Part shown: piece by piece, positions 6,639 to 28,766 of the stretch
How the letters are laid out: each line of letters opens with the position of its first letter
How positions within the stretch are numbered: position 1 is the stretch's first letter
Sequence record: SRR20825010_1048
Length of the DNA: 42,464 nt
Direction: 5' to 3' (one strand)
Position numbers and translations under genes: made by a program
Notes under the pieces: model-generated
Told to the model about the DNA's origin: nothing
The model's input: the letters and a program-made list of their open reading frames with translations, nothing else
Database searches by the model: none

Positions 6639-6664
6639 TGACTTCACTCGAAAGCGACGCCAAT

Positions 6665-8445: not shown

Positions 8446-8457
8446 GCGGCCTTATGT
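8429..8457. terminator. Perfect 13-bp hairpin between convergent genes (probable terminator)
   Basis: ACATAAGGCCGCT-GTG-AGCGGCCTTATGT. Confidence 0.65.
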
Positions 8458-8479
8458 GTGGTGTTTACCTGTCCAACGT

Positions 8480-10648: not shown

Positions 10649-10674
10649 TGTAACAATGGCCGGCTTTTCGTGTC
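10649..10674 (+). promoter_or_regulatory. Putative ECF sigma promoter for DUF547 gene
   Basis: TGTAAC-N16-TGTC, the same geometry as five other copies in the cluster. Confidence 0.65.
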
Positions 10675-10737
10675 GGTGAAAGAGCAAAGTCGATGAACCT
10701 GTAGACCTGTGGAACCTGTAGATCTTTGGAGAGTGAT

Positions 10738-13027: not shown

Positions 13028-13053
13028 AGCGAGTCAGGCCTTGGTGGCGCCCC

Positions 13054-13809
13054 TCAGGGCTGGGTGATGTCGGTGCCGAACCACTTCTCTGAAATGGAGG
13101 CCAGGGTTCCGTTGTCACGCAGGGCTGCCAGGGCCGCGTTTACTTCATCACGCAACGCTCGTCCGGCGTCCGTGTCGCGAAACGGGTAGGCGTTGGTGAT
13201 CTGGGAGAACGTTGGGCCGGCGAGCTCCAGCGGCAGTGGCTTCTCCTTGATGATCTGGCTGGCACTGACCCGGTCCATAACGAAGGCGTCCACGCGACCC
13301 AGAGCGGTATCACGCTCCAGATTGCTCTCATAGGTTTTGATGTTGATTTGGTCTGCATAGGGCAGTTCCCGCAACAGGGCCTCGAAGTTGGAGCCCAGAT
13401 TCACCGCGACGGTTTTACCCTTCAGATCTTCCACACCCTCGACCTCGGTGTTGCCTTCCTTGGTCACTACCTGAGCACCGTCATAGACATACGGTTCGCT
13501 GAAAATGTAGGCCTTCTGGCGTTCCTCGGTGATGGTGATCTGGTTGGCAACGGTGTCGATGCGCCCGGATTCCAACATGCCAAACAGGCCTGAGAAGTTG
13601 GCGGTCTGGTACTGGATTTCACGCCCCATTTCCTTGCCAATTGCGTTCATGACATCAACTTCAAACCCTTTGAGGGTATCCTGCTCCACAAAGGTAAACG
13701 GGAAATACTGGCCGGACATTCCGACTCTCAAGGGGTCTCCCTGGGCAAGAGCCGGAGCACTTACCATCATGGATACGATGATCAACGAATGAATCAATAG
13801 TGTTTTCAT
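13054..13809 (-). CDS. Amino acid ABC substrate-binding protein (YxeM/TcyA-like, probably a sulfur amino acid)
   Basis: Signal peptide; YFPF...GFEVDV, FSGLFGMLESGRIDTVANQITITEER, ISEKWFGTDIT. The substrate is an inference. Confidence 0.88.
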   Translation of the reverse strand: MKTLLIHSLIIVSMMVSAPALAQGDPLRVGMSGQYFPFTFVEQDTLKGFEVDVMNAIGKEMGREIQYQTANFSGLFGMLESGRIDTVANQITITEERQKAYIFSEPYVYDGAQVVTKEGNTEVEGVEDLKGKTVAVNLGSNFEALLRELPYADQINIKTYESNLERDTALGRVDAFVMDRVSASQIIKEKPLPLELAGPTFSQITNAYPFRDTDAGRALRDEVNAALAALRDNGTLASISEKWFGTDITQP

Positions 13810-13868: not shown

Positions 13869-15206
13869 TCATACGCGCCCTTGGCGTTTATTGAGAGTCG
13901 CGGTAGCCGCGACGATGCTCTTTTCGATCACCCACAACCGATCCTGCCCCCAACAGCTGACCTCCCCGTAACGGAAGCTGGGAACGCCCCATAGCCCGCA
14001 GTCATACATGGCTTTGCGGTTGTCCTCCGCCCACTCACGCCAGCTTTGATCGTTCAATAAAGCCTTGGCTTTCTGCCAGTTCAGGCCGGCTCGTTCAACG
14101 ATTACCTTCAGACCGGCATCGGTTTCGGAGCGGATGCCTTCGGCATTGACGGCCCTGGCGTAGGCCAGCATGTAGTCGGTCTCGCGACCGAGTGAGCGGG
14201 CGTATTCGAACAAGGCATAGCATCGTTCCACGCCCGGCCCCAAAGGATCGGCGACGAAACCATACGGAATGCCCAGCTTGTTGGCCTCCCTTTTGGTGTC
14301 GTGGAAGATGTACCACTTTTTGGCATCCGGTACCGACTGCCCGCGCATCAACATGGGCAGAACCGGTCTCAGTTGAAGAGGAATATTCCACGCATCGGCC
14401 AACTGGATTGCTCGCTCCAGGCCCAGATAGGAGTATGGGCTGCGGATGGAGAAGAAGACCTCAAGGGTGGTGTCGGTCGCTCGGTGGCTTTCAGTCGGGC
14501 TGGGGCCGCTACTCATCAATTCGGACCATGTGCGCGTGAAAAGGACCGCATCGGGGGCGTCCCGGTTCAGTCCTTGTTCGTTCAGACACCGCTCAAGATG
14601 ATCCAGGCGGTCCACGCCCCAGAACCATTCACCGAGGTACCAGGTCATGCTGCCTTGATAGTGTCCGAGTCGCCGGAGCAATCGTTCATTCGCGGATAGC
14701 CTTGCCTGGTCATACCTTGCGGGCGCAGCGTCTGGTTGTTGGCCGGTATCTGAATGCCACAGCTCTTTTAGCACATGCACGGCAGTTATCAGTCCTTCCT
14801 CAGTCTCTTCGGCATCAAGCAGACGGGCCGTGGCAGACATCAGTTCGGTCTCGGAGGGCGCCGTCGGCCGGTCTGGAGGCGTGAAGCCGTATAGTTGTGC
14901 GAGCCTTGTGGCGTCCTGTTGCGCCCAGGTGCGCCAGAGAGCCGGCTCGGGGTACATGTTGTCGTCCAGTTGCCAGACCGTATGGAGCCGGAAACGCACG
15001 CGAAAGCGTTCCTGCAATTGGGTAAGGGCTTGCAGCAGGGGGAGTCCAAATGGATCACGGGGATTCACGAACACCAGGACAAGATCGCTCTCCCCCCGTG
15101 CCTTTGCCCGAATGCTGTGAAGGGATCGTTGCAGGGAGACTCGGGGCGCACTGGAAAGGGCACGGGCGAGCCAGGGCATAACATCGGCTTTGACCGGACG
15201 GCGCAT
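13869..15206 (-). CDS. Tandem DsbA-like / 2-hydroxychromene-2-carboxylate isomerase (GST-kappa) family protein
   Basis: The C-terminal domain has FSIRSPYSY...GLWGVPSF...WGQDRL. The N-terminal degenerate copy has NPRDPFG...WFWGVDRL. Confidence 0.8.
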   Translation of the reverse strand: MRRPVKADVMPWLARALSSAPRVSLQRSLHSIRAKARGESDLVLVFVNPRDPFGLPLLQALTQLQERFRVRFRLHTVWQLDDNMYPEPALWRTWAQQDATRLAQLYGFTPPDRPTAPSETELMSATARLLDAEETEEGLITAVHVLKELWHSDTGQQPDAAPARYDQARLSANERLLRRLGHYQGSMTWYLGEWFWGVDRLDHLERCLNEQGLNRDAPDAVLFTRTWSELMSSGPSPTESHRATDTTLEVFFSIRSPYSYLGLERAIQLADAWNIPLQLRPVLPMLMRGQSVPDAKKWYIFHDTKREANKLGIPYGFVADPLGPGVERCYALFEYARSLGRETDYMLAYARAVNAEGIRSETDAGLKVIVERAGLNWQKAKALLNDQSWREWAEDNRKAMYDCGLWGVPSFRYGEVSCWGQDRLWVIEKSIVAATATLNKRQGRV

Positions 15207-15224
15207 AAGGTCGTCTCTATGTTG

Positions 15225-15896
15225 TTATTGGTTGAGTTGAAGCCAGCGCGCCAGCTGCGAGCCGGGGTGTCGGCTGATGGACCACGGCAACCATACCATC
15301 ACCGCCAGGATAACCGCGCCTGCGGCGACGGTAAGTACCGGATTCAACGTGAACGTGTTCCCCAGGCCTGCAAACACCACCGTCATTGGCAGCATGCCAA
15401 CGAAGGTGGCAATGGCGAAGCGCCAGGCGCGTATGGCAGTGACGCCGGCGGCGTAACTGATCAGGGCGAACGAGAAAACGGGTATCAGCCGGGTCAGCAG
15501 GATGGCAATGGTGAGAAAGCGTTGCGAGCCATCCCGTGCAAGCACAGGGTTGTCCGGAAAACGTTTGCAGATCACCTCGCGTCCGAGGCAACGGGCAACC
15601 CAGAACGCCGCCATGGCGCCCAGCAGGGCACCGGTTGCTGCAATGGCGGTTCCCTCAAGCACACCAAACGCCAGACCTGCGGTTGCACTGACCGGAAGCG
15701 TGGGAATCGGGCCTATCACAACCGCCATCGTCATCAGCAGCATCAGCAACAGTGGGCCGGCAGCCCCCTGGCTTTTCAGCCATTGTGCAAGGGTCTCCGG
15801 AGACAGGTCCGCGGGTATTCCCAATATCTGCAGCAGCCACCAGGCACCTGCCAGGGCAGCCATTACCACAACAACGATGGCGATTCTCAGTGTCAT
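15225..15896 (-). CDS. TVP38/TMEM64 (DedA superfamily) membrane protein
   Basis: GPIPTLPVSATAGLAFG, RLIPVFSFALISYAAG, ATFVGMLP. ATGA overlap with the upstream gene. Confidence 0.88.
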   Translation of the reverse strand: MTLRIAIVVVVMAALAGAWWLLQILGIPADLSPETLAQWLKSQGAAGPLLLMLLMTMAVVIGPIPTLPVSATAGLAFGVLEGTAIAATGALLGAMAAFWVARCLGREVICKRFPDNPVLARDGSQRFLTIAILLTRLIPVFSFALISYAAGVTAIRAWRFAIATFVGMLPMTVVFAGLGNTFTLNPVLTVAAGAVILAVMVWLPWSISRHPGSQLARWLQLNQ

Positions 15897-16645
15897 TCCG
15901 CCCACCGGAACCCCCGGTAATCAAACCCTTGTTCCAGTGTGGGTTTAACGACGTCGAAATAGGGGGAGGCGTCGAAATCCCGGGGCGCAAATAGAGAATG
16001 GTGGCGAATCCGGAAGTACTCGCGTTTTTGCGCGGCGCAAGCCGGATCACCTTCTGATTCGGACAGGCTTACGGGCAGTATCGGGTAACGGAGGGCCTGG
16101 AATCCCTCGGCGATGAATGTGGAGCAGATCGCCCGCGTGGGATCACCGCTGCCAAGGGCCAGAAGCGAACGTCGGTAACGAGACGGTACCGGTGGCGTCG
16201 GGCACAGGTAGCGTGCCAGATCCCAGACGTTTTTCAGGTCGTACTGGTGGCCGAGCCGGCTTTTCGAGTAATCCACAAGCTTGTCGATATCATTGTCAGT
16301 GAGTCCGACCGGGCGACAGATGCGGGTATGGGTGTTGCGGTATGCCGACAACGAAAGCGGGCGAATACCTTCCTCAAGATCCGCCTCGATCAGTACATGT
16401 GGCTCGCCATTGCCGGCGGCGCCAAGGCCCGCGTTCGGTCCCAGGTAAAGGGCGGCGTGCGACCAGGTTGACTGAGTCAGGTACTTGATGGCCACACTGA
16501 TTCGCGTATTTCCCTCCACCAGTAAGACGTCGCCGGGCTGAAGAGTTTTTTCCAGGGCCTCCCAGGCGGAGGTGCGCACCGAGTGTTGGGTGACCTGCTT
16601 TGAAAGGTAGGTGCTCAGGCGCCGTGACAGCCAGTTCAGTAGCAT
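15893..16645 (-). CDS. YiiX/YebB-like permuted NlpC/P60 cysteine hydrolase
   Basis: LQPGDVLL, WSHAALY (His), GHQYD, AICSTFIA (Cys). ATG 16645 has a GGAG RBS. Confidence 0.85.
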   Translation of the reverse strand: MLLNWLSRRLSTYLSKQVTQHSVRTSAWEALEKTLQPGDVLLVEGNTRISVAIKYLTQSTWSHAALYLGPNAGLGAAGNGEPHVLIEADLEEGIRPLSLSAYRNTHTRICRPVGLTDNDIDKLVDYSKSRLGHQYDLKNVWDLARYLCPTPPVPSRYRRSLLALGSGDPTRAICSTFIAEGFQALRYPILPVSLSESEGDPACAAQKREYFRIRHHSLFAPRDFDASPYFDVVKPTLEQGFDYRGFRWAE

Positions 16646-16684
16646 CGGTACTCCGGTTGTTGGCGGTAGGTTGATAGCAACAAG

Positions 16685-16710
16685 GACAAACAACCGGACT
16701 GACTGTTACA
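16685..16710 (-). promoter_or_regulatory. Putative ECF promoter for the YiiX-TVP38-DsbA(-ABC) unit
   Basis: Minus strand TGTAAC-N16-TGTC. Confidence 0.65.
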
Positions 16711-16726: not shown

Positions 16727-17137
16727 TTACGCAGCAGTGGGAGCCGGTTGCCTCGAAAGCGTAAGCGTATCGTAATCACGAAGCAGATACAGCGCCGCGC
16801 ATGCGGCGAGCATGGGCCAGGCCGCAAAGAACAGGAGGTTATCGAAAGGCTGCAGGTATTTCGCGAATGAGGACAGGGTGGAAGCACCGTGGAAGATCAG
16901 GAGTGCGCCGTAAGTCCAGGTTTTCAGAAGGCCAGCAACAAACATCAGTATCAGCACAAGTTGTGCGATGCCAATGAGGTAGACGGCTGTCTCGCCAAGG
17001 CCATCGAGCCCGTAGAATGAATCGAAAACCTTGATGGCGTGCTCGGGCTGAACCAGTTTATCCAGGGTCCAGACCAGAAAAACCACGAAAACACCAAGTC
17101 GAAGTAACAGCAGGGCAAGGGGTAACTGCTTGGGCAT
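16727..17137 (-). CDS. DoxX-like small membrane protein
   Basis: LLLLRLGVFVVFLVWTLDKLVQPEH; four hydrophobic segments; AAGGAG RBS. Confidence 0.75.
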   Translation of the reverse strand: MPKQLPLALLLLRLGVFVVFLVWTLDKLVQPEHAIKVFDSFYGLDGLGETAVYLIGIAQLVLILMFVAGLLKTWTYGALLIFHGASTLSSFAKYLQPFDNLLFFAAWPMLAACAALYLLRDYDTLTLSRQPAPTAA

Positions 17138-17237: not shown

Positions 17238-17263
17238 TGTAACGTCCGGAAGGGGCGGGTGTC
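17238..17263 (+). promoter_or_regulatory. Putative ECF promoter oriented antisense to the anti-sigma gene
   Basis: TGTAAC-N16-TGTC on the + strand, about 20 bp before the anti-sigma 3' end. Confidence 0.45.
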
Positions 17264-17284: not shown

Positions 17285-17548
17285 TCACGGGTCCGACGTG
17301 TCGTTTCCGGAGCGCCGAGCGTTGAGCGACTCACTGACACGTTCGTCAATCCGGCGTACCAGATCTTCGTCCAGCTGCTGGCTCGAGTGGGCGTTCATAA
17401 GCTCTATGCTGGCCCGCAGGCTGCCAATGAAGCTACGACATCGACCGCACATCAGCAGGTGCATTTTCACAGACATTACTTTCCCGGTACCCAATTCACC
17501 GTCAATGTAATCACTGGCGATGCGAGCCAAGTCTCGGCACATTAACAT
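17285..17548 (-). CDS. Soluble zf-HC2 (ZAS) anti-sigma factor
   Basis: 87 aa, C...SDYIDGEL...HLLMCGRC (HxxxCxxC), no transmembrane segment. Overlaps the ECF sigma stop. Confidence 0.9.
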   Translation of the reverse strand: MLMCRDLARIASDYIDGELGTGKVMSVKMHLLMCGRCRSFIGSLRASIELMNAHSSQQLDEDLVRRIDERVSESLNARRSGNDTSDP

Positions 17549-18162
17549 TCGCCTGTCTCCTGAAATGTCTCAACCATCAGAAAGATTTTCTGCCGTGCCC
17601 GATGCAGGAGCACGCGCAGGTTAGAGGCGCTGACATCCAGAATGTTACACACGTCGTCAGATTTGTGCTGATGCGCTTCGTACAACATCAATGCTGATCG
17701 CTGTGTTTCCGGCAGTGCGGACAGGTGTTGATCAAGGCAGTCGCTCAGTGCACCGTTCTCCATCAGTGCCTGGGCGGACTCATTGGTTTTCAGGCTCGGC
17801 GGTGTGGCCCAGCGACCATTGGGCGCAAAGCGGGCGGCGAGGTCCGGGTCCAGCGCTTCCGAAAAATCCGCGTTCACTTCCCGCTTCGTCTTTCGGAGAT
17901 GATTCTTGGCCCGGTTTGCCACGATACGGTGCAGCCATGTCTTCAGGCCGGAACGGCCCTCAAATGTCTGAACGGCGTCGATAACCGTCACCCAACAATC
18001 CTGGACAATTTCCTCTGCCGAGGCGTGATCAAGGTAAAAGCGGGCGACGGCCATCATGCCAGGGGTGTATAAACGCACAGCCTCGCGAAAGGTGCCCTGG
18101 TTCCCCGACTTCAGGCCGGTGATGAGGATGTCGTCGTCAGATTGATGTGTTGTGGTTTCCAT
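17542..18162 (-). CDS. ECF RNA polymerase sigma factor
   Basis: Region 2 AEEIVQDCW...FEGRSGLKTWLHRIVAN; region 4 LPETQRSAL...NLRVLLHRAR. Confidence 0.93.
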   Translation of the reverse strand: METTTHQSDDDILITGLKSGNQGTFREAVRLYTPGMMAVARFYLDHASAEEIVQDCWVTVIDAVQTFEGRSGLKTWLHRIVANRAKNHLRKTKREVNADFSEALDPDLAARFAPNGRWATPPSLKTNESAQALMENGALSDCLDQHLSALPETQRSALMLYEAHQHKSDDVCNILDVSASNLRVLLHRARQKIFLMVETFQETGEC

Positions 18163-18313: not shown

Positions 18314-18339
18314 TGTAACATCCAGCGCTTTGCCGTGTC
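18314..18339 (+). promoter_or_regulatory. Putative ECF promoter for the oxidoreductase unit
   Basis: TGTAAC-N16-TGTC(TC). Confidence 0.65.
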
Positions 18340-18369
18340 TCACAGAGCAACCGTTTTCACTTTTAATTT

Positions 18370-20571
18370 ATGGATTTAGCTATGAACTCCAAAAAGCTCG
18401 TTTTGCTGCTGGTTATCGGTGTCGTGGTTGCACTGTTTGTCAGTTTTGGCGGTCACGAGATACTCACGCTGGAAAACCTGCAGAAACACCAGTCTGCCAT
18501 TGAGCAGTGGATCCGTCAGAATTTGTTGGTGGCGGTGCTTGGCTTCGCGGCTGTTTATGTGGTGGTGACGGCCTTGTCGCTGCCCGGTGCGGCGATCATG
18601 ACGCTGGCCGGCGGTGCCTTTTTCGGTAATGTCTATGGACTGGTTGCGGTATCCATTGCGTCGACCATCGGGGCCTCTCTTGCGTTCCTGGTGGCCAGGT
18701 TTCTGATGCGGGATACCTTGCGGGAGAAGTACGCGGAAACTGTCGCAAAGATGGACCGTGGCATCGAGAAAGACGGTGCGTTCTATCTTGCCACCCTGCG
18801 CCTGGTACCGGTATTTCCGTTCTTCCTGATTAACCTGGCGATGGGCCTGACCGCCATGAAGCTGAAGACCTACGCTCTGGTGAGCTGGGCGGCGATGCTG
18901 CCGGGTACCTTTGTGTATGTAAACGCCGGCACCCAGCTGTCGACGATTGAAACCACCAGCGACATTGTGTCGGCCAATATTCTGCTGTCTTTCGCCCTGT
19001 TAGGGGTATTCCCGCTGATCGCCAAGTTTGTTGTCGGTTTCATTCGCAAGCGCCGGGTGTACGCCGGCTGGCAGAAACCCGAGTCGTTTGATTACAACCT
19101 GCTGGTGATTGGCGGTGGCTCGGCGGGCCTGGTGTCGGCGTACATTGCCGCAGCGGTTAAGGCGAAGGTGGCGCTGATCGAGAAAGACAAAATGGGCGGA
19201 GACTGCCTCAACACCGGTTGCGTGCCGTCCAAGGCGCTGATTCGCAGTGCCAAGGCGGCCGACACCCTGCGCCAGGCGAATCGTTATGGCCTGGAGTCGG
19301 TACCGGTAAAAGGCTCCTTTGCCAATATCATGGCGAGGGTTAAAGAAGTCATCGCCAAGGTGGAACCCCACGACTCGCCCGAGCGCTTCCGCAAACTGGG
19401 TGTTGACTGCATCTCCGGTACCGCCAGCTTCGTATCGCCCTGGGAGTTGGAAGTACTCCATAGCGACGGTCACACCGAGCGCCTGACCGCGCGCAGTATT
19501 GTGGTGGCCACTGGGGGCAAGCCGGCAGTGCCGCCCATTCCCGGTTTGGCAGACATGGAGCCGCTGACATCGGACAATCTATGGTCCCTGCAGACCCAGC
19601 CTGAGCGCTTGCTGGTACTTGGTGGCGGCCCCATTGGCTCGGAACTGGCCCATGCCTTTGCGAGGCTTGGCAGCAAGGTGATCCAGGTGGAAATGGGCGA
19701 GCGTTTGCTGGCCAAGGAAGACGCCGATGTCTCCGAGGTCATCCGGAAACAGTTTGAACAGGATGGCATTGATCTGCGGCTTAACCACGCCGCCAAGGAG
19801 TTCGCTGTCGAGGACGGAGAAAAGGTGGCCTACTGCGAGTTCAACGGCGAGCGCGTGAGGATCGTGTTTGACCAGGTTCTGGTTGCTGTTGGTCGTGCCG
19901 CTCGAACTGACGGCCTGGGGCTGGCAAAGATAGGGGTGGAAACCCTGCCCAATGGCACTGTGCCAGTGGCAGAAGACATGAGTATGCGCTTCCCCAACGT
20001 CTTCGCCTGTGGCGATGTGGCCGGGCCCTATCAGTTTACCCACGCGGCGGCTCACCAGGCCTGGTACGCGGCAGTGAACGGTCTGTTTGGCGAGTTCAAG
20101 CGTTTCCAGGTGGATTACCGGGTGATGCCCTGGGTGACCTTTACCTCGCCGGAAGTGGCCAGGGTCGGCCTTAGCGAGGCCGAAGCCAAGGAAAAAGGTG
20201 TGGCTTACGAAGTCACCCGCTATGGCCTGGACGACCTGGATCGTGCCATTGCTGAGAGTGAGGATTACGGTTTTATCAAGGTGCTCACGCCGCCAGGGAA
20301 GGACAAGATTCTGGGTGCCGTCGTGGTCGGTGTGCACGCCGGCGAGATACTGGCCGAGTTCACCCTGGCCATGAAGCACGGCCTGGGGCTGAACAAAATT
20401 CTGGGCACTATCCACCCTTACCCGACCTGGAACGAATCAGCCAAGTATGCCGCTGGAGAGTGGAAGCGCGAACACGCGCCCCAGGGCATTCTCAAACTGC
20501 TTGAGAAACTTCACGGCTGGCGCCGTGGCAAACAGGCCGGCGACAAGGCCGGCCGGGAAGTAACAACGTAA
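18370..20571 (+). CDS. TVP38/DedA membrane domain fused to a FAD-dependent pyridine nucleotide-disulfide oxidoreductase
   Basis: N-terminal ALSLPGA...LRLVPVFPFFLIN. C-terminal GGGSAG, GGDCLNTGCVPSK, GGGPIG, HPYPTWNE. Alternative start 18382. Confidence 0.92.
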   Translation: MDLAMNSKKLVLLLVIGVVVALFVSFGGHEILTLENLQKHQSAIEQWIRQNLLVAVLGFAAVYVVVTALSLPGAAIMTLAGGAFFGNVYGLVAVSIASTIGASLAFLVARFLMRDTLREKYAETVAKMDRGIEKDGAFYLATLRLVPVFPFFLINLAMGLTAMKLKTYALVSWAAMLPGTFVYVNAGTQLSTIETTSDIVSANILLSFALLGVFPLIAKFVVGFIRKRRVYAGWQKPESFDYNLLVIGGGSAGLVSAYIAAAVKAKVALIEKDKMGGDCLNTGCVPSKALIRSAKAADTLRQANRYGLESVPVKGSFANIMARVKEVIAKVEPHDSPERFRKLGVDCISGTASFVSPWELEVLHSDGHTERLTARSIVVATGGKPAVPPIPGLADMEPLTSDNLWSLQTQPERLLVLGGGPIGSELAHAFARLGSKVIQVEMGERLLAKEDADVSEVIRKQFEQDGIDLRLNHAAKEFAVEDGEKVAYCEFNGERVRIVFDQVLVAVGRAARTDGLGLAKIGVETLPNGTVPVAEDMSMRFPNVFACGDVAGPYQFTHAAAHQAWYAAVNGLFGEFKRFQVDYRVMPWVTFTSPEVARVGLSEAEAKEKGVAYEVTRYGLDDLDRAIAESEDYGFIKVLTPPGKDKILGAVVVGVHAGEILAEFTLAMKHGLGLNKILGTIHPYPTWNESAKYAAGEWKREHAPQGILKLLEKLHGWRRGKQAGDKAGREVTT

Positions 20572-20581
20572 AACAGAATAA

Positions 20582-20612
20582 GTGCAGGTGTTACAGGGCC
20601 TGCACCTTTTTT
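20582..20612 (+). terminator. Possible intrinsic terminator/attenuator
   Basis: GTGCAGG-N10-CCTGCAC followed by CTTTTTT. Confidence 0.5.
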
Positions 20613-20647
20613 GGCACTCATAGATTCATCGTCAACACGGAGCAGCT

Positions 20648-21610
20648 ATGCCCCTGACCCAAACCGCCGAAAGACGTATTCCCGCCGTGGAAGTGCTGGA
20701 ACCGAGGGCCCGCGACAGCTGGACCCACACCCGCAACGGCGACCCGCGCGGCTACATTGATTCCGACAAGCTCAAGGAACTGTGGATTCATACCGGCACC
20801 GCCTGCAACCTGGCCTGCCCGTTTTGCCTGGAAGGGTCACACCCCGGCGATGGCCGTATTCCGGGCATGAAGTTGAGCGACGTGAAACCCTTTATTCACG
20901 AAGCCCTGGATATGGGGGTGGAGCAGTTCTCCTTCACCGGCGGTGAGCCTTTCGTGATCAAGGATTTCATCAATATCCTCGATTACGCCAGCCAGCACCG
21001 TCCCTGCTTTGTCCTGACCAATGCCACGGATCCACTGCTCAAACGCCGTCATCAGGTGCTGCCGTTACTGGACAACGCCTACCCGATCCATTTTCGCGTC
21101 AGCCTGGATTTTCCTGACCGGGCCCGGCATGACGTGGACCGGGGTGAAGGCAGTTTCGATAAGGCATTGGAGGGGATTCGCTGGCTGGTCGACCAGGGTT
21201 TTCAGGTATCGATTGCTCGCCAGACCGATCCGGAGGAGATTCCGGCGGATGTGGAAGCGGCTTTCCGCGAGATTCTGCGGGACTGGGGCATTCCTGAAAC
21301 GCTGGCATTCACCGCGTTCCCTGATCTGGGGACGCCCGGCTCAGAAGACGGCAGCCCGGAGATTACCGAAACCTGCATGGAGAAATACCCCACCAAAGAG
21401 GCACGGTCGCACTTCATGTGCACTTATACGCGCATGCTGGTGAAGCGGGATGACCGGGTGCGGGTGTATGCCTGTACGTTGGTGGATGACGATCCGCAGT
21501 ATGACCTTGGCGGGACACTGGCGGAGAGCATGGATGAGCGGATTATGTTGCGGCATCACCGGTGTTTTGCCTGTTATCGGTTTGGGGCTAGTTGTTCGGC
21601 GCCTGGGTGA
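20648..21610 (+). CDS. Radical SAM protein with Cys-rich C-terminus (distantly ArsS-like)
   Basis: CNLACPFC (CxxxCxxC), FTGGEPF, LTNA. Extra Cys in ETCM, FMCT, YACT, RCFAC and GASCS. Confidence 0.88.
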   Translation: MPLTQTAERRIPAVEVLEPRARDSWTHTRNGDPRGYIDSDKLKELWIHTGTACNLACPFCLEGSHPGDGRIPGMKLSDVKPFIHEALDMGVEQFSFTGGEPFVIKDFINILDYASQHRPCFVLTNATDPLLKRRHQVLPLLDNAYPIHFRVSLDFPDRARHDVDRGEGSFDKALEGIRWLVDQGFQVSIARQTDPEEIPADVEAAFREILRDWGIPETLAFTAFPDLGTPGSEDGSPEITETCMEKYPTKEARSHFMCTYTRMLVKRDDRVRVYACTLVDDDPQYDLGGTLAESMDERIMLRHHRCFACYRFGASCSAPG

Positions 21611-21711
21611 CTTTTTTTAAGACTGGTTGCTGGGAGTTGGCGGTCTGGGGGCGGTTGAATGACTGCAATTCGCTGGATTAGAACAAAGAACGGACGAGGA
21701 AAAGACAGACG

Positions 21712-23115
21712 ATGAATTTCACGGAAGCGACCCTGTTTTGGGGGTTTTTGGTGGTTTATGGGGTGGTGATGTATGTGTTGTCGCCCAAGAGCAAGAACGC
21801 CAATTCGTTCTATAAAGGTGCGGATGATCAGGGTAACCCGGTAAGTCAGTGGTCGCTGACGGCGAGTATTTTCATCAGTTGGATCTTTGCCAAGTCGGTG
21901 ACCAACGCGGCCAACCTGGGGGCTGCTTATGGTGTCACCGGCGGTCTGGCGTACGCCAGTTACTGGCTGTCGATTCCCGTGGCCGGCTACATCATCTATT
22001 TGATTCGGACCCAGACCGGTGCCCGCAGCCTGCAGGATTTCCTCACGTCGCGCTTTGGCCGGCTGGCCAGTCTGGCGTTTGCGGCGGCCATCCTGATCCG
22101 TCTGTATAACGAAGTCTGGAGTAACACCGCCGTGGTGGGCGGCTATTTCGGGCTGCCGGGTGAGTGGGAGTACTACTCCGCGGCGATGCTGTTTACCGTC
22201 TTTACCCTCGCCTACAGCCTGAAAGGTGGCCTGCGGTCGTCGATATTCACGGATGTGATTCAGGCGTTCGTGTTTGTGTTCTTTGTCGGCGCGGTGCTGT
22301 TCCTGATTGTGCCGGCCAATGACACCAGTGCCCTGCTCACCGACGGTGAGTTCAAGCTCAATGCCGGCTTTGACCTGTTGCTCGTCGCGCTGTTGCAGAT
22401 GTTCAGCTACCCCTTCCACGATCCGGTGTTAACCGACCGGGGCTTCGTGAACAAGGAAAAGACCATGCTGAAGAGCTTCGTGGTGGCAGGACTGCTGGGC
22501 TTTGTGGCGGTGTTCATCTTCAGCCTCGTCGGTGTTCACGCACGGCTCAATGGGATTGAGGCCATGGGTAATGCGCCCGCGGCTGTCGGACAATCGCTTG
22601 GGTTGGCGGCGCTCTTCTTCATGAGTGTGGTGATGATGACCTCCGCCGGCTCCACGCTGGATTCCACATTCAGTTCACTGGCCAAGTCCCTGGCGGTGGA
22701 TCTGCCACGGCTGGCGAAACGTGCCAAAGACCGGTTGCCGAGCGTTCGCGTGGGCGCAGTCATCATGATTGTGTTCGCGCTGCTGGGTAACCTGCCGATG
22801 TTTGCCGGCACCGACATTCTCAAGGCCACCACCATTTCCGGCACCATGGTGATGGGGCTGGCACCGGTGTTCCTGTTCTACGGGTTTACCCGCTGGTCGC
22901 CCTGGAGCTTCCATCTCAGTTTCTGGACCGGCCTGGGCCTGGGTGTGCTGCTGGCAACGGGGCTGATTCCCGCCAGCTGGGCCATCGGTGACGGCAAATA
23001 CGCCATGCTGCTGGGTGTAAACGCCTACGGCTTCCTGATCTGCACCGCCGGCTTCTTTGTGCCGCTGGTCGTCCGCCGACTTGCCGGGCGCTCTCTGGCG
23101 GCCGGGGAGGTTTAG
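21712..23115 (+). CDS. Sodium:solute symporter (SSS) family protein
   Basis: Multi-TM protein with YSLKGGLRSSIFTDVIQ and SAGSTLDSTFSS motifs. Confidence 0.88.
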   Translation: MNFTEATLFWGFLVVYGVVMYVLSPKSKNANSFYKGADDQGNPVSQWSLTASIFISWIFAKSVTNAANLGAAYGVTGGLAYASYWLSIPVAGYIIYLIRTQTGARSLQDFLTSRFGRLASLAFAAAILIRLYNEVWSNTAVVGGYFGLPGEWEYYSAAMLFTVFTLAYSLKGGLRSSIFTDVIQAFVFVFFVGAVLFLIVPANDTSALLTDGEFKLNAGFDLLLVALLQMFSYPFHDPVLTDRGFVNKEKTMLKSFVVAGLLGFVAVFIFSLVGVHARLNGIEAMGNAPAAVGQSLGLAALFFMSVVMMTSAGSTLDSTFSSLAKSLAVDLPRLAKRAKDRLPSVRVGAVIMIVFALLGNLPMFAGTDILKATTISGTMVMGLAPVFLFYGFTRWSPWSFHLSFWTGLGLGVLLATGLIPASWAIGDGKYAMLLGVNAYGFLICTAGFFVPLVVRRLAGRSLAAGEV

Positions 23116-23126
23116 GAGGTGGTGTC

Positions 23127-24089
23127 GTGACCGAGGGCCGGAGTTGTCCGCTGGCGTATCGCTACGATCCGGCGTCGCTGTGTGCTGAGCCGCAACAGGT
23201 GGCCGGGGACGTGCTGTATGTTATCGGTGGCCTGTACGGAAATCCCCTTGCCCTGGATGAAATCGAGCGATTGGCACGGGCGGAGGAGCGACAGGGCCGC
23301 CGGGTGACGCTGGTGTTTAACGGGGATTTTAACTGGTTTAACGCCACCGACGGGCTGTTCCGGGAGATCAACAATCGGGTGCTGGAGCATACCGTCAGCC
23401 TGGGCAACGTGGATTATGAACTGGCCAACCCCAATGATGGCGCCGGCTGCGGTTGTGCCTATCCGGATTTCGTGGATGAGGGCGTCGTGGCACGTTCCAA
23501 CGCCATTATGGAGCGGCTGCAGGGGGTGGCCGGGGAGCATTCCGATATTCAGGCGCGGTTATCCCTCTTACCCCGTTACCGTTGCCTGATATTTGGAGGC
23601 CTAAAGGTTTTGGTGATTCACGGCGATCCGGAGTCCCTCGCCGGTTGGGGGTTGGCCCATGAATCCTTTGTGGCTGGTAACGAGGCGAAGCTGACGGAGT
23701 GGTTCCTGGCCAGCGGTGCTGATGTGATTGTCTCCACCCACACCTGCCTGCCAGTACTGTGGTCGGGAATGGTGAACGAGCGACGTTGTGTGGTTGCCAA
23801 CAACGGGGCAGCCGGAATGGGGAATCTGCGGCAGGACCCCCGTGGGTTGATCACCCGGATCGGTCTGGCGAGCCCCGTGGCTGAGCCGGTTGCCGGTCTT
23901 GAGCGGCAGGGCCTGAATGTCTCACTGTTACCCGTGGACTATGACGTCGACGCCTGGTTAGAGCAGTTTGACCGGCTCTGGCCGGCGGGTTCGGCCGCCG
24001 CTGTGTCGTACCGGGACCGGATCGTTGGAGGGACTTCGATAACCGCAGACGATATTACGTTTCCCCCTGGAAGGGGCTCTATAGGGTAA
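23127..24089 (+). CDS. Atypical metallophosphoesterase-fold protein
   Basis: GGLYGN, FNGDF, GNVD, IHGDP and STHT follow the calcineurin-like motif order; also GCGCAYP. GGAGG RBS. Confidence 0.7.
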   Translation: MTEGRSCPLAYRYDPASLCAEPQQVAGDVLYVIGGLYGNPLALDEIERLARAEERQGRRVTLVFNGDFNWFNATDGLFREINNRVLEHTVSLGNVDYELANPNDGAGCGCAYPDFVDEGVVARSNAIMERLQGVAGEHSDIQARLSLLPRYRCLIFGGLKVLVIHGDPESLAGWGLAHESFVAGNEAKLTEWFLASGADVIVSTHTCLPVLWSGMVNERRCVVANNGAAGMGNLRQDPRGLITRIGLASPVAEPVAGLERQGLNVSLLPVDYDVDAWLEQFDRLWPAGSAAAVSYRDRIVGGTSITADDITFPPGRGSIG

Positions 24090-24175
24090 CGAATTTGTCA
24101 CTGGCGGTTGGTGTAATAATGTCTATTCTGAAGGTGAGAGGTAGCCATCGGGGCTGGCGGCCCCAGAGCGCCGAC

Positions 24176-24203
24176 TTGAAATATATTTTGTGGTCTATAT
24201 AAT
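24176..24203 (+). promoter_or_regulatory. sigma70 promoter of ect operon with overlapping EctR-like operator
   Basis: TTGAAA-N16-TATAAT; TATTTTGT-GG-TCTATATA at 24184-24201. Confidence 0.7.
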
Positions 24204-24238
24204 TTAACGCTAACTTTTTGAGGCGAATCGATCACGTT

Positions 24239-24754
24239 ATGACATCAGAAGGCTCGAATACCACCGCCATCACCCTCCGCACGCCGGTCAAGGATGATGG
24301 CTACAGGCTTCACCAGTTGGTGGCACAATGTCCCCCGCTGGACCCTAACTCGATCTACTGCAACCTCCTGCAGTGCAGCCATTTTGCCGAAACCGGCGTG
24401 GCCGCGGAGATAGACGGCGATCTGGTCGGCTTTATTTCCGGATATATTCCCCCCCAACAGCCCGAAACCGTTTTTGTCTGGCAGGTGGCCGTTCACGAGA
24501 AAGGTCGTGGGCAAGGTCTTGCCAAGCGGATGTTGAAGGCGATTGTGGCCAGGGACGCGTGTAAAGACGTGACCCACATGGAAACCACCATCACTGAAGA
24601 CAATGAGGCTTCCTGGGCGCTGTTCCGGTCCTTTGCCCGTGACATGGGTGCTGAACTGACTTACCACGAGCACTTTGAGAAAGACACCCACTTTGGCGGC
24701 AAGCACGACTCCGAGTTCCTGCTCCGCATCGGGCCTTTCACAAAGACGGCGTAG
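24239..24754 (+). CDS. ectA: Diaminobutyrate acetyltransferase
   Basis: CPPLDPNSIYCNLLQCSHF, FVWQVAV...RGQGLA, ETTITEDNEASWALF. Confidence 0.95.
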   Translation: MTSEGSNTTAITLRTPVKDDGYRLHQLVAQCPPLDPNSIYCNLLQCSHFAETGVAAEIDGDLVGFISGYIPPQQPETVFVWQVAVHEKGRGQGLAKRMLKAIVARDACKDVTHMETTITEDNEASWALFRSFARDMGAELTYHEHFEKDTHFGGKHDSEFLLRIGPFTKTA

Positions 24755-24885
24755 CAGCCTTCCCGAACGACCGATCCCCCTGTTTGGACTAGCCGGCAGA
24801 TTGCTGAGGTGAATCTGTCACAACGGCTTCAACCAACGTGCTACCGCACAGTTACCTCGAACCTGACATGCTAAGAGGCAAGACA

Positions 24886-26154
24886 ATGGAACTTTTCAAG
24901 TCGACCGAATCCGAAGTGCGCGTTTATTCCCGTGCCTTTCCGGTGATCTTTAACCGTGCCAAGAACGCGCACCTGTACACCGAAGATGGCAAGGAATACC
25001 TGGACTTCCTGGCCGGCGCCGGGTCACTGAACTATGGCCACAACAACGACATTCTCAAGAAAGCGCTGCTCGAGTACATTGAAAGCGATGGTGTCAGCCA
25101 GGGCCTGGATATGTTTACCACCGCCAAGCACGATTTCATTGAGTCGTACAAAAAGCACATCCTGGACCCCCGTGGCCTGGACTACAAAATGCAGTTTACC
25201 GGTCCTACCGGCACCAACTGCGTGGAAGCGGCCCTGAAACTGGCTCGCAAGGTGAAAGGCCGCAATGGCATCGTGTCCTTCACCAATGGCTTCCACGGCG
25301 TCACCATGGGCGCGGTCGCGGCCACAGGCAACAAGCACCACCGTGGTGGCGTTGGCACCCCGCTGGGGAATGTGGACTTCATGTTCTATGACGGCTACCT
25401 GGGTGAGAACGTAGATACCCTGGAAATCATGGACAAGGTGTTGTCCGACGGCTCCTCCGGTTTTGAACTGCCGGCAGCGGTCATCGTTGAAGCGGTCCAG
25501 GGCGAAGGCGGATTGAACGCCGCCCGCGCTGAATGGCTGCAGGGCCTCGAGAAGCTGTGCAAAAAGTACGACATTCTGTTGATCGTTGACGATATCCAGG
25601 CAGGGAACGGCCGTACCGGCGAGTTCTTCAGTTTCGAATTTGCGGGCATCAAGCCGGATATCGTAACGGTATCCAAGTCGTTGAGCGGTTACGGCCTGCC
25701 GATGGCCCTGGTGCTGTTCAAGCCGGAGCTTGATGTCTGGGGGCCGGGCGAGCACAACGGCACCTTCCGGGGCAACAACATGGCCTTTGTAACCGCCCGC
25801 GCAGCGGTCGAGACCTACTGGAAAGACGATGCCTTTGCCAATGAAGTGAAAGCCAAGACCGAGGTTCTGGCTGAAGGGCTGCAGGCAATCTGTGACAAGT
25901 ACCCGGGCGAGTTCAGGATGAAAGGCCGGGGCATGATGCGTGGCATTGAAGCCACCGACGCTGAAGTGACGGACAAGATCACCGGTCGTGCCTTTGAGAA
26001 GGGCCTGATTATTGAAACCAGCGGCCCCAATGACGAAGTGATCAAATGCCTGATGCCGCTGACCACCAGCGAGGACGATCTGCGCAAAGGTGCTAAACTT
26101 CTAGGTCAAAGCGTGGACGAAATCATGCAGGAGGGAATGAGCAAGGCGTCCTGA
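24886..26154 (+). CDS. ectB: Diaminobutyrate-2-oxoglutarate transaminase
   Basis: [54 protein letters not shown]. Confidence 0.96.
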
Positions 26155-26205
26155 GACGCCTGCCATCTCCCGACACTCATTCTGCAGGATAACGACGGTA
26201 ACATT

Positions 26206-27648
26206 ATGACTAGCGAACAACATACCGTAGAGAAAATCGGCGGCACCTCCATGAGCAATTATGAGGCGGTGCGCGACAACATCATTCTCGGCGGGCGCTC
26301 CAAGGACGACCTGTACCAGCGCATCTTCGTGGTCTCCGCCTATGGCGGTGTCACCGACGAATTGCTGGAGCACAAGAAAACCGGAGAACCGGGTGTCTAT
26401 GCCCTGTTCGCCGATGCCGAGTCGGACTGGGCCTGGGGCGACGACCTCACCAAACTGATCCAGTTCCTGACCGACATCAATGGCGAGCTGTTCCCGGACC
26501 CCATGCTCAAGCAGCAGGCGGACCAGTTCATCACTGACCGCATCGAAGGCGTTCGCGGCTGCCTGATTGATTTGCAACGTCTGTGTTCCTACGGGCAGTT
26601 CCAGCTTGAGGAGCATCTGCTGACGGTTCGTGAAATGCTGGCCGGTATCGGTGAGGCCCACAGTGCCTTCAACACTGCCCTGAAGCTTCAGCAGGAAGGC
26701 ATCAATGCGCGGTTCGTGGACCTGACCGGGTGGCGCGACAATGAACTGCTGCCGCTGGATGAAAAGCTCAAGCAGGCATTCGACGCGGTGGACCTGAGCC
26801 GTGAGCTGCCGATCGTGACGGGGTATGCCCAGTGCAAGGAAGGCCTGATGCGTACCTTCGACCGGGGCTACAGCGAGATGACCTTCAGCCGGGTCGCGGT
26901 GATTACCAACGCCCGCGAAGCGATCATCCACAAGGAATACCACCTCAGTTCCGCGGACCCCAACATTGTCGGTGCGGATAAGGTCGTCCCCCTGGGGCGC
27001 ACCAACTATGACGTTGCTGACCAGTTGGCGAACCTCGGTATGGAAGCGATCCACCCGCGCGCTGGCAAGGGCATGCGTCAGAACGAGATTCCGCTGCGGG
27101 TGATGAACACCTTCGAGCCGGAGCACACCGGTACCCTGATCACCGGCGACTACGTCAGTGAGAAGCCTCAGGTAGAGATCATCGCGGGTAACAAAGGCGT
27201 GTTTGCCATTGAGGTGTTCGATCAGGACATGCAGGGTGAGCCCGGTTCCGACCGTCGCATTCTGGAAGTGCTGGGTCGCTTCAAGGTGCGTTTCGTATCC
27301 AAGGACACCAACGCCAACACCATTACCCACTACGTGGACAGTACGCTCAAACACGTCAAACGGGTGGTCAGGGCGTTGAAAGACGAATTTCCCAACGCCG
27401 AAATCAGCACTCGCAAGGTGGCGATCGTGTCTGCCATTGGCAGCGATATCAAGGTGTCGGGCATCCTGGCTCGGTCAGTCAAGGCCCTGGCGGACGAGGA
27501 TATCAGCGTTCTGGCCCTGCACCAGTGCATGCGGCAGGTGGACATCCAGTTCGTAGTGGACGAAGACGCCTATGAGAAGACCATTGTGGCGCTTCATGGC
27601 GCGCTGATTGAGCCTCACAACCACGAGTACGCGATCGTTGCAGCGTAA
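26206..27648 (+). CDS. ask: Ectoine-pathway aspartate kinase (Ask_Ect)
   Basis: HTVEKIGGTSM, FDRGYSE, IHKEYHLSSADP; follows ectAB. Confidence 0.93.
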   Translation: MTSEQHTVEKIGGTSMSNYEAVRDNIILGGRSKDDLYQRIFVVSAYGGVTDELLEHKKTGEPGVYALFADAESDWAWGDDLTKLIQFLTDINGELFPDPMLKQQADQFITDRIEGVRGCLIDLQRLCSYGQFQLEEHLLTVREMLAGIGEAHSAFNTALKLQQEGINARFVDLTGWRDNELLPLDEKLKQAFDAVDLSRELPIVTGYAQCKEGLMRTFDRGYSEMTFSRVAVITNAREAIIHKEYHLSSADPNIVGADKVVPLGRTNYDVADQLANLGMEAIHPRAGKGMRQNEIPLRVMNTFEPEHTGTLITGDYVSEKPQVEIIAGNKGVFAIEVFDQDMQGEPGSDRRILEVLGRFKVRFVSKDTNANTITHYVDSTLKHVKRVVRALKDEFPNAEISTRKVAIVSAIGSDIKVSGILARSVKALADEDISVLALHQCMRQVDIQFVVDEDAYEKTIVALHGALIEPHNHEYAIVAA

Positions 27649-27767: not shown

Positions 27768-28766
27768 ATGACTGACGTTCAGAGCCCGGGGCCGTCTCCG
27801 ACCATAGCCCATTCCGGCGAAACGGAATCCCTGGTAGGGCTGTACTTCAGGGATGCGTCCCGTTACGAATTGCTCACCAATGAGGGCGAGCGCCGACTTT
27901 CACGGCGCCTGACCTTCTGCTATCGGATCATATCTACCGAGCTTGCCTTGCCGGAAGGCACCCCTCAGACATTCCGCGAAGTGGTTGGAAGCCTGGGCGA
28001 CGCCTGTGCTTTTTCGAGGCGGTGTCGTCGTGCCTACCATCTCGCCACCGCAAGTCGTCAGCGGCTGATTCGCAGCAATCTCCGGCTCGCGGTGCACATC
28101 GCAAGGCGCTACGCCAACCGCGGCATTCCCATGTCGGATGTCATTCAGGATGCCAATGTCGGTCTGATCAAGGCCGTGGAGCGGTTTGATCCTACCAAGG
28201 GCTTTCGTTTCTCGACCTATGCCTACTGGTGGATCAGCGAAGAGGTGAAGCGGTGCATGAAGCGTGGAACCCGGCTTGTGCATACCCCTGAAAACGTGGT
28301 CGATGAAATCCGCCTGTTGCAGAAAAAATCCCTGGTACTGCACCAGACATTGGGCCGCACGCCGTCGCAGACCGAACTGGCGCGGGAGATTGAGGTGTCG
28401 CCTTCCCGCATTGGTGAGCTGCGGGCGCTGGCCAGTCTGGAAGTGTCAGTGGATCTGCCGGTGGGCATGGACGGTGGCATTACGCTGGGTGACAGCCTCA
28501 GTGCAGACGATCAGTCCGCGCCGGACCACGACATGGCCCAGCGTGACCGCAAACGGACACTGACCGCTCTCTTGGCGGAACTGAGTTCGCGGGAAAAGGA
28601 TGTCCTGGCCAGGCGTTACGGCCTGGGTCTCCCAGAACCGGAAACCCTGCAGGTGATCTCCGATGACCTGGGAATAAGCCGGGAGCGGGTGCGGCAGATA
28701 GAGAAAAGCGCCCTGAAAAAGTTACGGGGCCGTTTTATCGACCCTAACGACGAGCTCCGGGGCTAG
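27768..28766 (+). CDS. Alternative sigma70-family factor (RpoS/RpoD-like paralog without region 1.1)
   Basis: Region 1.2 LYFRDASRYELLT; region 2 NLRLAVHIARRY...KAVERFDPTKGFRFSTYAYWWI; region 4 ISRERVRQIEKSALKKLR. Confidence 0.92.
   Translation: MTDVQSPGPSPTIAHSGETESLVGLYFRDASRYELLTNEGERRLSRRLTFCYRIISTELALPEGTPQTFREVVGSLGDACAFSRRCRRAYHLATASRQRLIRSNLRLAVHIARRYANRGIPMSDVIQDANVGLIKAVERFDPTKGFRFSTYAYWWISEEVKRCMKRGTRLVHTPENVVDEIRLLQKKSLVLHQTLGRTPSQTELAREIEVSPSRIGELRALASLEVSVDLPVGMDGGITLGDSLSADDQSAPDHDMAQRDRKRTLTALLAELSSREKDVLARRYGLGLPEPETLQVISDDLGISRERVRQIEKSALKKLRGRFIDPNDELRG

Follow-up and report, generated by a model that had tools for sequence, protein, structure and literature searches.

An ArsS-related radical SAM family in a putative organoarsenical locus of Marinobacter

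The DNA stretch SRR20825010_1048 (42,464 nt, hereafter the window) carries at positions 18314-24089 a four-gene locus that we read as the core of a pathway for arsenosugar-type organoarsenicals, or for a related metalloid, in which an undescribed family of radical S-adenosylmethionine (rSAM) proteins would replace ArsS (probability roughly 0.55). The four open reading frames, all on the plus strand between 18370 and 24089, encode a flavoprotein disulfide reductase fused to a VTT/DedA domain (VTT-FDR), the rSAM protein, a sodium:solute symporter (SSS) and a metallophosphoesterase (MPE)-like protein. As a preliminary description of this DNA had reported, they are co-oriented and lie behind a promoter motif of the extracytoplasmic function (ECF) type. 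The evidence consists of homology, gene linkage, domain fusions, a complementary phyletic pattern and the promoter motif itself. Because the rSAM protein has the architecture, the partners and the phyletic niche of ArsS without belonging to its family, analogous replacement within the same pathway is the most economical explanation, and VTT-FDR, TIGR04283 and TIGR04282 proteins, often joined by a DUF547 protein, would be the core accessories. The host belongs to the genus Marinobacter: the database proteins nearest to the rSAM protein bear Marinobacter names, and the best related locus, at 98% identity, is that of Marinobacter algicola DG893.

The rSAM protein (320 aa) matches a single Pfam family, PF04055, and carries a CX3CX2C motif at residues 53-60 followed by conserved cysteines at positions 258, 276, 306, 309 and 316. 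Across an alignment of 26 diverse family members, C53, C57, C60, G98, G99, E100, R150, R165, C258, C276, C306 and C309 are invariant, and C316 is nearly so, being kept in at least 90% of the sequences. A family search returned 6370 relatives at E<=0.001, about 580 family representatives at E<=1e-10 and just 76 sequences at E<=1e-30, and a search of the PDB with the family profile found generic radical SAM cores only. Profile-profile alignment (hhalign) of this family with 11 genome-derived ArsS sequences, all above the TIGR04167 cut-off, gave a probability of 99.5% and an E value of 8.6e-23 over 275 columns and extends over the full length. In the rSAM protein, the five C-terminal cysteines (C258, C276, C306, C309 and C316) align with C250, C265, C305, C308 and C316 of ArsS, and the tails read HHRCFACYRFGASCS and DHCYGCTAGQGSSCGG, respectively.

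Assignment to ArsS itself was nevertheless rejected, on a TIGR04167 score below cut-off, the lack of a DUF3641 match and a clean separation by hidden Markov models (HMMs). Three family members including the window protein score 401-410 bits on their own HMM and 26-30 bits on the ArsS HMM, while ArsS proteins score 507-572 bits on the ArsS HMM and 55-79 bits on that of the rSAM family. DUF3641 scores 187.9 bits on a bona fide ArsS (locus L164), and the profile-profile alignment nevertheless covers the DUF3641 region of the rSAM protein. Judged by sequence, the protein is thus a remote full-length homologue of ArsS from an as yet unnamed sister family; the preliminary description had linked such neighbourhoods to ArsS-type loci, and that link is borne out. 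Searches of the accessible literature found no paper on the rSAM family, on VTT-FDR fusions or on Marinobacter arsenosugars; family and accessory set appear undescribed in the literature searched, and neither NCBIfam nor Pfam has a name for the family.

ArsS adenosylates the trivalent dimethylarsenical DMAs(III) to 5'-deoxy-5'-dimethylarsinoyl-adenosine, forming a carbon-arsenic (C-As) bond, according to the accessible part of PMC13598754, and together with ArsM it performs the first steps of arsenosugar formation, as stated in a passage of PMC8552651 that cites Xue et al. 2019. The rSAM family resembles ArsS in its CX3CX2C core, its length of about 320 aa, its five aligned C-terminal cysteines, including an H-x-C-x2-C-x6-S-C tail, and its neighbours (ArsM-type methyltransferase, TIGR04282/04283, VTT-FDR, ECF sigma factor and MTAP-like phosphorylase), and the two are mutually exclusive in their occurrence across genomes. 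Unlike ArsS, the rSAM protein, whose activity is putative, occurs in Marinobacter without ArsM and together with the SSS and MPE-like genes. The arsinothricin enzyme ArsL was also considered. It too is a radical SAM protein with a C-terminal cysteine tail and an ArsM-type methyltransferase as partner, and that tail binds As(III) according to the part of bioRxiv 10.1101/2024.02.01.577332 available to us. This assignment was rejected, as the tail of the window protein reads HHRCFACYRFGASCSAPG and lacks RCCLKC; the ArsL model NF040542 is absent among the best 25 of 43 NCBIfam matches. ArsL, moreover, transfers an aminocarboxypropyl group, and we see no sign of such chemistry for the rSAM family.

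Outside Marinobacter, the family stands among the gene neighbours of ArsS. Among 401 genomes sampled from the class, 12 match the rSAM protein at E<=1e-25, 10 of them at full length, including the genome nearest to the window (G001, used for genome-wide searches) and G337, which is counted in this tally only. In 8 of the 10 non-Marinobacter loci examined (L011, L012 and L107-L114), the rSAM gene is immediately preceded by an ArsM-type gene. TIGR04282-like genes are found in five and TIGR04283-like genes in four of these loci, VTT and FDR domains in five (three fused, 57-58% identical to the window protein, and two split), ECF sigma genes in three and an MTAP-like phosphorylase in two; two hold no listed partner. 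For example, the gene order in L012 is TIGR04282-like, ArsM-like, rSAM, ArsC of the thioredoxin type, MTAP-like and TIGR04283-like, and an ArsC-type gene is also found in the Marinobacter locus L087. Matches of the ArsM-like partner to solved arsenite methyltransferases span its whole length (5evj, 367.7 bits; 4fr0, 309 bits), and it has in common with 5evj four cysteine-containing motifs, AC, GCG, SNCVINL and GECL, whose cysteines we take to be those that bind As(III). In three Marinobacter species (L035, L087 and L089), an ArsM-like gene lies 4-8 kb upstream of the rSAM gene.

Domain fusions link the same partners. The rSAM domain is fused to ArsM-like domains in three representatives (P0122, P0123 and P0141), to TIGR04282 in P0148 (163.6 bits against a cut-off of 134), to HD_3 in P0147, to Metallophos_2 in P0169 and P0187 and to flavoprotein domains in P0172 and P0217. 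These fusion proteins score 241-363 bits on the HMM of the rSAM family and 27-54 bits on that of ArsS.

Several of the partners also stand beside ArsS. In 14 bona fide ArsS loci, a TIGR04283-like gene was found six times, an ArsM-like gene of the same type (61-64% identity) twice, and a VTT-FDR fusion 58-60% identical to that of the window three times, which bears out the earlier expectation that this reductase accompanies ArsS. One of these loci, L168, also has an ECF sigma gene and, directly after VTT-FDR, a homologue (55% identity) of the permuted papain-like C92 protein encoded in the window; a homologue of the window's DoxX-like protein (54% identity) is present in the rSAM locus L107. 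The reductase itself is a 733-aa protein with a VTT domain at residues 75-188 (PF09335, 89.3 bits, gathering score 33.9) and a group-I flavoprotein disulfide reductase at residues 242-694 (Pyr_redox_2, 201.8 bits; Pyr_redox_dim, 100.8 bits) with the redox motif CLNTGC. It falls below all NCBIfam equivalog cut-offs (lipoamide dehydrogenase, 386.6 against 408.8) and is about equally near to solved MerA (5x1y, 256 bits) and to the E3 component (238 bits). With MerA, dihydrolipoyl dehydrogenase and glutathione reductase it shares the FAD and NAD(P)H domains, the CxxxxC redox centre and the dimerisation domain; unlike them it has an N-terminal VTT/DedA domain, and it is without a C-terminal cysteine pair and an NmerA domain. 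MerA was rejected as an identity, as TIGR02053 gives 376 bits against a cut-off of 454.45 and the last 150 residues hold no cysteine.

The distribution of these genes across 41 related genomes, 25 from Marinobacter and 16 from other genera, was surveyed for five proteins, and the counts are given without a statistical test because the genomes are mutually related. The rSAM protein is present at full length in 24 of the 25 Marinobacter genomes, the exception being 84% complete. Among the 16 other genera, the 10 that have TIGR04283 are exactly those that have the VTT-FDR fusion at full length (G027, G028, G029, G031, G032, G035, G036, G039, G040 and G041); in the remaining six, neither of these was found, nor ArsS, nor the rSAM family. 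This identity of pattern strengthens the proposed link of the reductase with arsenosugar genes. Seven of the 10 TIGR04283-positive genomes hold ArsS and two (G029 and G036) hold the rSAM family; none holds both, and G040, which is 81% complete, has neither. Similarly, ArsS above its cut-off was found in none of the 10 non-Marinobacter holders of the rSAM family, G029 and G036 among them. In G001, TIGR04283 (276 bits, cut-off 182) and TIGR04282 (167.7 bits, cut-off 134) are encoded by neighbouring genes at a distance of about 1.9 Mb from the operon, and ArsS was not found. Next to the pair (L124, G001:C1:2948000-2966000) are genes for a MerR-family regulator and for a flavoprotein disulfide reductase of 469 aa that stands alone. 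As a side observation, of 401 genomes sampled from the phylum, 157 hold bona fide ArsS, most of them members of one family of small genomes (f281).

A shared promoter motif ties the operon to a local regulon. The locus start given by the preliminary description, 18314, coincides with the opening T of TGTAAC-N14-CGTGTC. The pattern TGTAAC-N13-18-GTGTC has three matches in the window, all on the plus strand, against 0.04 expected, and none of 100 shuffled sequences reached three. The 4.6-Mb genome G001 holds five strict matches, three of them at the locus; as the reversed pattern gives 10 matches there, it is the clustering and not the genome-wide count that is enriched. A slightly looser form of the motif lies 49-64 nt 5' of the reductase gene in 52 of the 70 related loci with sufficient upstream sequence, the spacer varying in length and both boxes being kept. 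In 13 related loci (L029, L032, L043, L044, L058, L064, L067-L070, L080, L084 and L091), an extra TGTAAC-N-GTGTC copy, absent from the window, stands about 60 nt 5' of the rSAM gene, at about position 9940.

The same motif precedes the DUF547 gene in the window and in L015, L021, L058 and L070, in agreement with the connection between DUF547 and arsenosugar loci drawn in the preliminary description, and this gene is a probable member of the same regulon. In L071 (9429-9995), L072 and L079 it is inserted after the reductase gene and before the rSAM gene, an arrangement that certain genomes of Marinobacter and Tamilnaduibacter display; in the truncated locus L077 it immediately precedes the rSAM gene, and in L109 a homologue adjoins a TIGR04282-like gene. 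The third motif copy of the window is oriented toward the 3' end of the anti-sigma gene and has no gene behind it. At the corresponding place in L020, the motif precedes a gene for a 318-aa DUF3179 protein (5584-6602; PF11376, 270.6 bits), and the window copy is therefore probably the promoter relic of a lost DUF3179 gene.

Divergent from the operon lies an ECF sigma gene whose product has Sigma70_r2 and r4_2 domains; the adjacent small protein has a zf-HC2 domain with HxxxCxxC, its cysteines and histidine being C4 and H30-x3-C34-x2-C37 (C-x25-H-x3-C-x2-C). Related loci were taken as the best 80, nearly all from Marinobacter, of which 15 with short flanks were dropped; in 37 of the 65 counted, an ECF sigma gene is adjacent. 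This ZAS-type anti-sigma factor and its sigma factor probably control the operon and DUF547. The arrangement recalls the SigR-RsrA switches, with a small soluble anti-sigma factor that is, we presume, akin to RsrA, a divergent ECF sigma gene and an AAC...GT-type promoter before the targets; unlike them, the regulon appears small and local, as the motif counts in G001 indicate.

RNA sequencing libraries from three studies, in which 65-74% of the sequence words sampled from the stretch were recovered as contigs, cover all four genes. Contigs span the boundary of the reductase and rSAM genes (X6, 20164-21644) and that of the SSS and MPE-like genes (X6, 22254-23733; X9, 22607-24144). They give neither transcript ends nor strand nor level, and they neither prove a single transcript nor exclude DNA carry-over. 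The X6 and X9 contigs break between 23733 and 24175, and depth rises over ectA, a weak hint that the operon ends here and that the promoter-like site at 24176-24203 marks its downstream boundary. In the RNA contigs of related strains, a one-base indel was seen at 21612, in the T-run just past the rSAM stop codon. A functional link to the ectoine genes was rejected: it amounts to synteny, ectA has its own strong sigma-70-like promoter, the RNA contigs break before ectA, and the ect genes stay in place where SSS and MPE-like genes are lost.

The last two gene products of the operon are divergent members of their groups. The SSS protein matches PF00474 at 42 bits (gathering score 22.8) over residues 44-199 only, and TIGR00813 at 47.1 bits against a cut-off of 184. 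The MPE-like protein matched no Pfam model at E<=0.001, PF00149 and PF12850 included, and no NCBIfam model, and a PDB sequence search with it returned nothing meaningful; in the Atlas, the clusters nearest to it carry the names calcineurin-like or metallophosphoesterase. Its AlphaFold 2 model (pLDDT 89.3, pTM 0.90) gave 344 PDB matches at E<=0.001 in Foldseek, the top eight chains all being of metallophosphoesterase type. The best was SapH, an Ap4A hydrolase/phosphodiesterase (E 1.5e-11; TM-score 0.61 normalised by query, 0.76 by target).

Fourteen sequences were aligned for the MPE-like protein, L083 being left out for a reading frame with a stop. Invariant are C7, GGLYGN (34-39), GD (66-67), GN (93-94), C-G-C (108-110), RSN, HGD (165-167), HTCLP (205-209) and NNG, and thus four cysteines, C7, C108, C110 and C207. 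The complete set of metal-binding motifs, which we take to be DxH, GD, GNH[DE], H and GH, is not present, as GGLYGN stands for DxH and GNV[DE] for GNH[DE]. Compared with SapH/Spr1479 and YfcE-type enzymes, the fold and the GD, GN, HGD and H motifs are kept, while D-x-H has become G-L-Y, the histidine of GNH has become valine and four invariant cysteines are added. The protein has, as predicted, a degenerate metallophosphoesterase fold.

Several points weigh against the proposed replacement of ArsS, at the level of the family, of the operon and of the substrate. TIGR04167 matches just the N-terminal half of the window rSAM protein, at 40.8 bits where the cut-off is 300 (39.6 bits for the G001 copy), DUF3641 (PF12345) has no match at E<=1 in the window protein or in P0121, and the profile identity with ArsS is just 17%; a substrate or product different from that of ArsS is possible. 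The 'arsenosugar' names of TIGR04282 and TIGR04283 are NCBIfam labels, and we know of no experimental test of them. Domain scans of the window revealed no ars resistance gene, and a ZAS/ECF pair next to DsbA-like and DoxX-like genes would also be in keeping with a regulon for thiol stress in general.

One rival reading is that the core of rSAM, VTT-FDR and TIGR04282/04283 acts on selenium, tellurium, antimony or a thiol-reactive organic compound, ArsM being an occasional add-on. The thiol-sensing type of the anti-sigma factor and the DsbA-like, DoxX-like and DedA neighbours would agree with this, DedA proteins being linked to selenite uptake, as would the presence of ArsM-like genes in just five of the 10 TIGR04283-positive non-Marinobacter core genomes and in none of the 25 from Marinobacter. 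We consider it unlikely, given the ArsM-type genes adjacent to the rSAM gene or fused with it, the cysteine motifs that their products share with a solved arsenite methyltransferase, and the ArsC-type genes of L012 and L087; ArsS itself, going by the accessible part of the source on its reaction, is an arsenic enzyme. Should the substrate not be arsenic, the chemistry of the ArsS superfamily would be broader than now assumed.

At the level of the operon, SSS and MPE-like genes are found in none of the 14 ArsS loci, where the preliminary description had expected both, and in none of the 10 non-Marinobacter rSAM loci. MPE-like homologues occur in 10 of the 401 class genomes, eight of which are without the rSAM family, the other two being G001 and G324. 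Terminator-like hairpins with T-runs follow the reductase gene (20582-20605) and the rSAM gene (21590-21612). All four genes are held by 51 of the 65 counted loci, 34 of them with the sigma gene adjacent. Five loci keep the reductase and rSAM genes only, four have these with SSS and no MPE-like gene, one has them with the MPE-like gene and no SSS, one has rSAM, SSS and MPE-like genes without the reductase, and three, all from Pseudohongiella, have the rSAM gene alone. These counts identify reductase and rSAM as the tight pair and SSS and MPE-like genes as a looser, largely Marinobacter-specific module.

The region may hold two unrelated modules, a reductase-rSAM unit and a separate SSS-MPE unit for uptake and hydrolysis, an arrangement that would leave our reading intact for the first unit. 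The hairpins and the loci that lack the MPE-like gene, with or without loss of SSS, speak for it, as do the spacing of the genes (11 nt between SSS and MPE-like genes against 101 nt between rSAM and SSS) and the contexts of MPE-like homologues, which are unrelated in G068, G094, G121, G218 and G428, a weaker SSS homologue being nearby in two genomes. On the other hand, all four genes stay together in most loci, and fusions of the rSAM family include MPE-like domains that show the same degenerate motifs: the N-terminal domain of P0187 is a homologue of the MPE-like protein of the window (26% identity over 219 residues, E 5e-8), with GG-x-Y-x-N and CGC motifs in common, the match to P0169 being weak (E 0.13). 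Outside Marinobacter, SSS and MPE-like genes are paired with VTT-FDR only in G324, where the SSS (63% identity) and MPE-like (48%) genes lie about 3.3 kb from the VTT-FDR gene (53%). We regard two unrelated modules as a possibility worth keeping, somewhat on the doubtful side.

At the level of the substrate, the chief puzzle is the lack of ArsM in Marinobacter. The ArsM-like query found nothing in the 25 sampled Marinobacter genomes, and in G001 the best ArsM score is 64 bits against a cut-off of 263; without ArsM, the known ArsS substrate DMAs(III) is not made in the cell. The absence fits an imported methylarsenical or a different substrate. ArsS holders without an ArsM-like gene (G031, G035, G039 and G041) were also observed in the related order, where ArsS without ArsM seems common. 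The window, of which the larger open reading frames were scanned, likewise holds no ArsM or glycosyltransferase gene, as had been noted before; a search of G001 for the arsenosugar genes, as had been proposed, recovered TIGR04282 and TIGR04283 elsewhere in the genome and neither ArsM nor ArsS.

It is in this setting that the reading first proposed has to be weighed: organoarsenicals from outside would be taken up and then salvaged or broken down, the SSS protein importing algal arsenosugars or methylarsenicals, the MPE-like and rSAM proteins dismantling or rebuilding them and the reductase restoring thiols. The rSAM protein is nearly universal in the sampled Marinobacter genomes in which ArsM was not found, a transporter stands within the operon in 56 of the 65 loci, and the closest named relative is by its name an alga-associated species. 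The sole characterised homologue, however, forms a C-As bond (PMC13598754, as far as the part consulted goes), the partners of the family elsewhere are biosynthetic (ArsM, TIGR04282/04283 and MTAP-like phosphorylase), and Marinobacter species with ArsM by the operon (L087 and L089) keep SSS and MPE-like genes, so that SSS is no simple substitute for ArsM. Import of dimethylarsenic for conversion into a new product agrees with the replacement of ArsS; the truly competing variant is catabolism, which we judge improbable and less likely than formation of a C-As bond. The salvage or catabolic route first proposed thus keeps its salvage half as a possibility, and its catabolic half is not favoured.

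Under the replacement of ArsS, we infer the following course, in which the roles of the SSS and MPE-like proteins are proposed, as are the substrate and the chemistry of each step. The cytoplasmic zinc-finger anti-sigma factor would free the ECF sigma factor under thiol-reactive stress, and the latter would act at TGTAAC-N-GTGTC promoters to transcribe the four-gene operon and the DUF547 gene. The rSAM protein would cleave S-adenosylmethionine and add the 5'-deoxyadenosyl radical to a trivalent arsenical held on the C-terminal CxxC-x6-C tail, yielding a 5'-deoxy-5'-arsinoyl-adenosine. The membrane-anchored NAD(P)H disulfide reductase may keep the thiols of enzyme and substrate reduced, or reduce As(V) species, and the TIGR04283/TIGR04282 pair encoded elsewhere would process the product further. 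Because Marinobacter is without ArsM, the symporter may import a methylated arsenical, and the cysteine-rich MPE-fold protein may act on a nucleoside-like intermediate or on an arsenical.

The features of the window that bear on the locus are collected in Table 1. After the DsbA-like and stand-alone VTT/DedA genes of the sigma-factor strand (13869-15905) comes an amino-acid-type ABC transporter (11610-13809). The first 10,600 nt (1-10600) hold an iron-siderophore-type uptake cluster with two TonB-dependent receptors, FecCD permeases, a periplasmic binding protein and an ABC ATPase, and FdhD is encoded at 95-1042. Downstream, ectA, ectB and an ectoine-type aspartokinase gene are adjacent at 24218-27648, all above NCBIfam cut-offs, with ectC neither between them nor directly after; next comes a gene (27768-28766) for a member of the sigma-70 family that has regions 1.2, 2, 3 and 4.

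Table 1. Coordinates of the operon, its control elements and neighbouring genes in the window.
Feature	Position	Strand	Basis
ECF-type motif before DUF547 gene, TGTAAC-N15-GTGTC	10649-10674	+	Pattern search
DUF547 protein, 284 aa, signal-peptide-like N-terminus	10726-11580	+	PF04784, 89.1 bits
DsbA-like thioredoxin-domain protein, 445 aa, sigma-factor strand	13869-15206	-	PF01323, 81.3 bits
Stand-alone VTT/DedA membrane protein, 226 aa, sigma-factor strand	15225-15905	-	PF09335, 83.9 bits
Permuted papain-like C92 protein, YaeF/YiiX-type	15893-16693	-	PF05708, 38.2 bits
DoxX-like membrane protein, weak match	16727-17137	-	PF07681, 23.0 bits, just under cut-off of 23.6
Orphan third ECF-type motif, no gene behind	17238-17263	+	Pattern search
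zf-HC2 ZAS-type anti-sigma factor, 87 aa	17285-17548	-	PF13490, 32.1 bits
ECF sigma factor, divergent from operon	17542-18162	-	Sigma70_r2 + r4_2; TIGR02937, 71 bits (cut-off 42.9)
ECF-type motif TGTAAC-N14-CGTGTC, 56 nt 5' of reductase start codon	18314-18339	+	Pattern search; kept in related loci
VTT-FDR gene	18370-20571	+	PF09335 + Pyr_redox_2 + Pyr_redox_dim
rSAM gene, unnamed sister family of ArsS	20648-21610	+	PF04055, own HMM, hhalign to ArsS
Divergent SSS gene, 467 aa	21712-23115	+	PF00474, Atlas clusters
MPE-fold protein gene, 320 aa	23127-24089	+	AlphaFold 2 model + Foldseek
Sigma-70-type promoter-like site TTGAAA-16-TATAAT before ectA	24176-24203	+	11/12 consensus matches

Taken as a whole, the interpretation offered by the preliminary description is partly supported, and the substrate stays putative. 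An extension that we put forward as speculative, and think rather unlikely in its full form, is that marine heterotrophs lacking ArsM, such as Marinobacter, import methylarsenicals of phytoplankton through SSS and convert them with the ArsS replacement, the reductase, the four-cysteine MPE-fold protein and TIGR04282/04283 into arsenosugar-type compounds. If true, the marine arsenic cycle would have a branch run by heterotrophs and fed by salvage, and VTT-FDR, DUF547 and the MPE-like protein would supply missing later steps of arsenosugar formation, of which, to our knowledge and from the parts of the literature available, only the first two (ArsM and ArsS) have been shown experimentally.

A second ArsS-like family that curated models miss would mean that surveys counting ArsS undercount the pathway. 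Its compact and phyletically tight accessory set of VTT-FDR, TIGR04283/04282 and often DUF547 provides candidates for the later steps. Furthermore, a cultivable aerobic genus that has the system and is without ArsM would separate C-As adenosylation from methylation for genetics.

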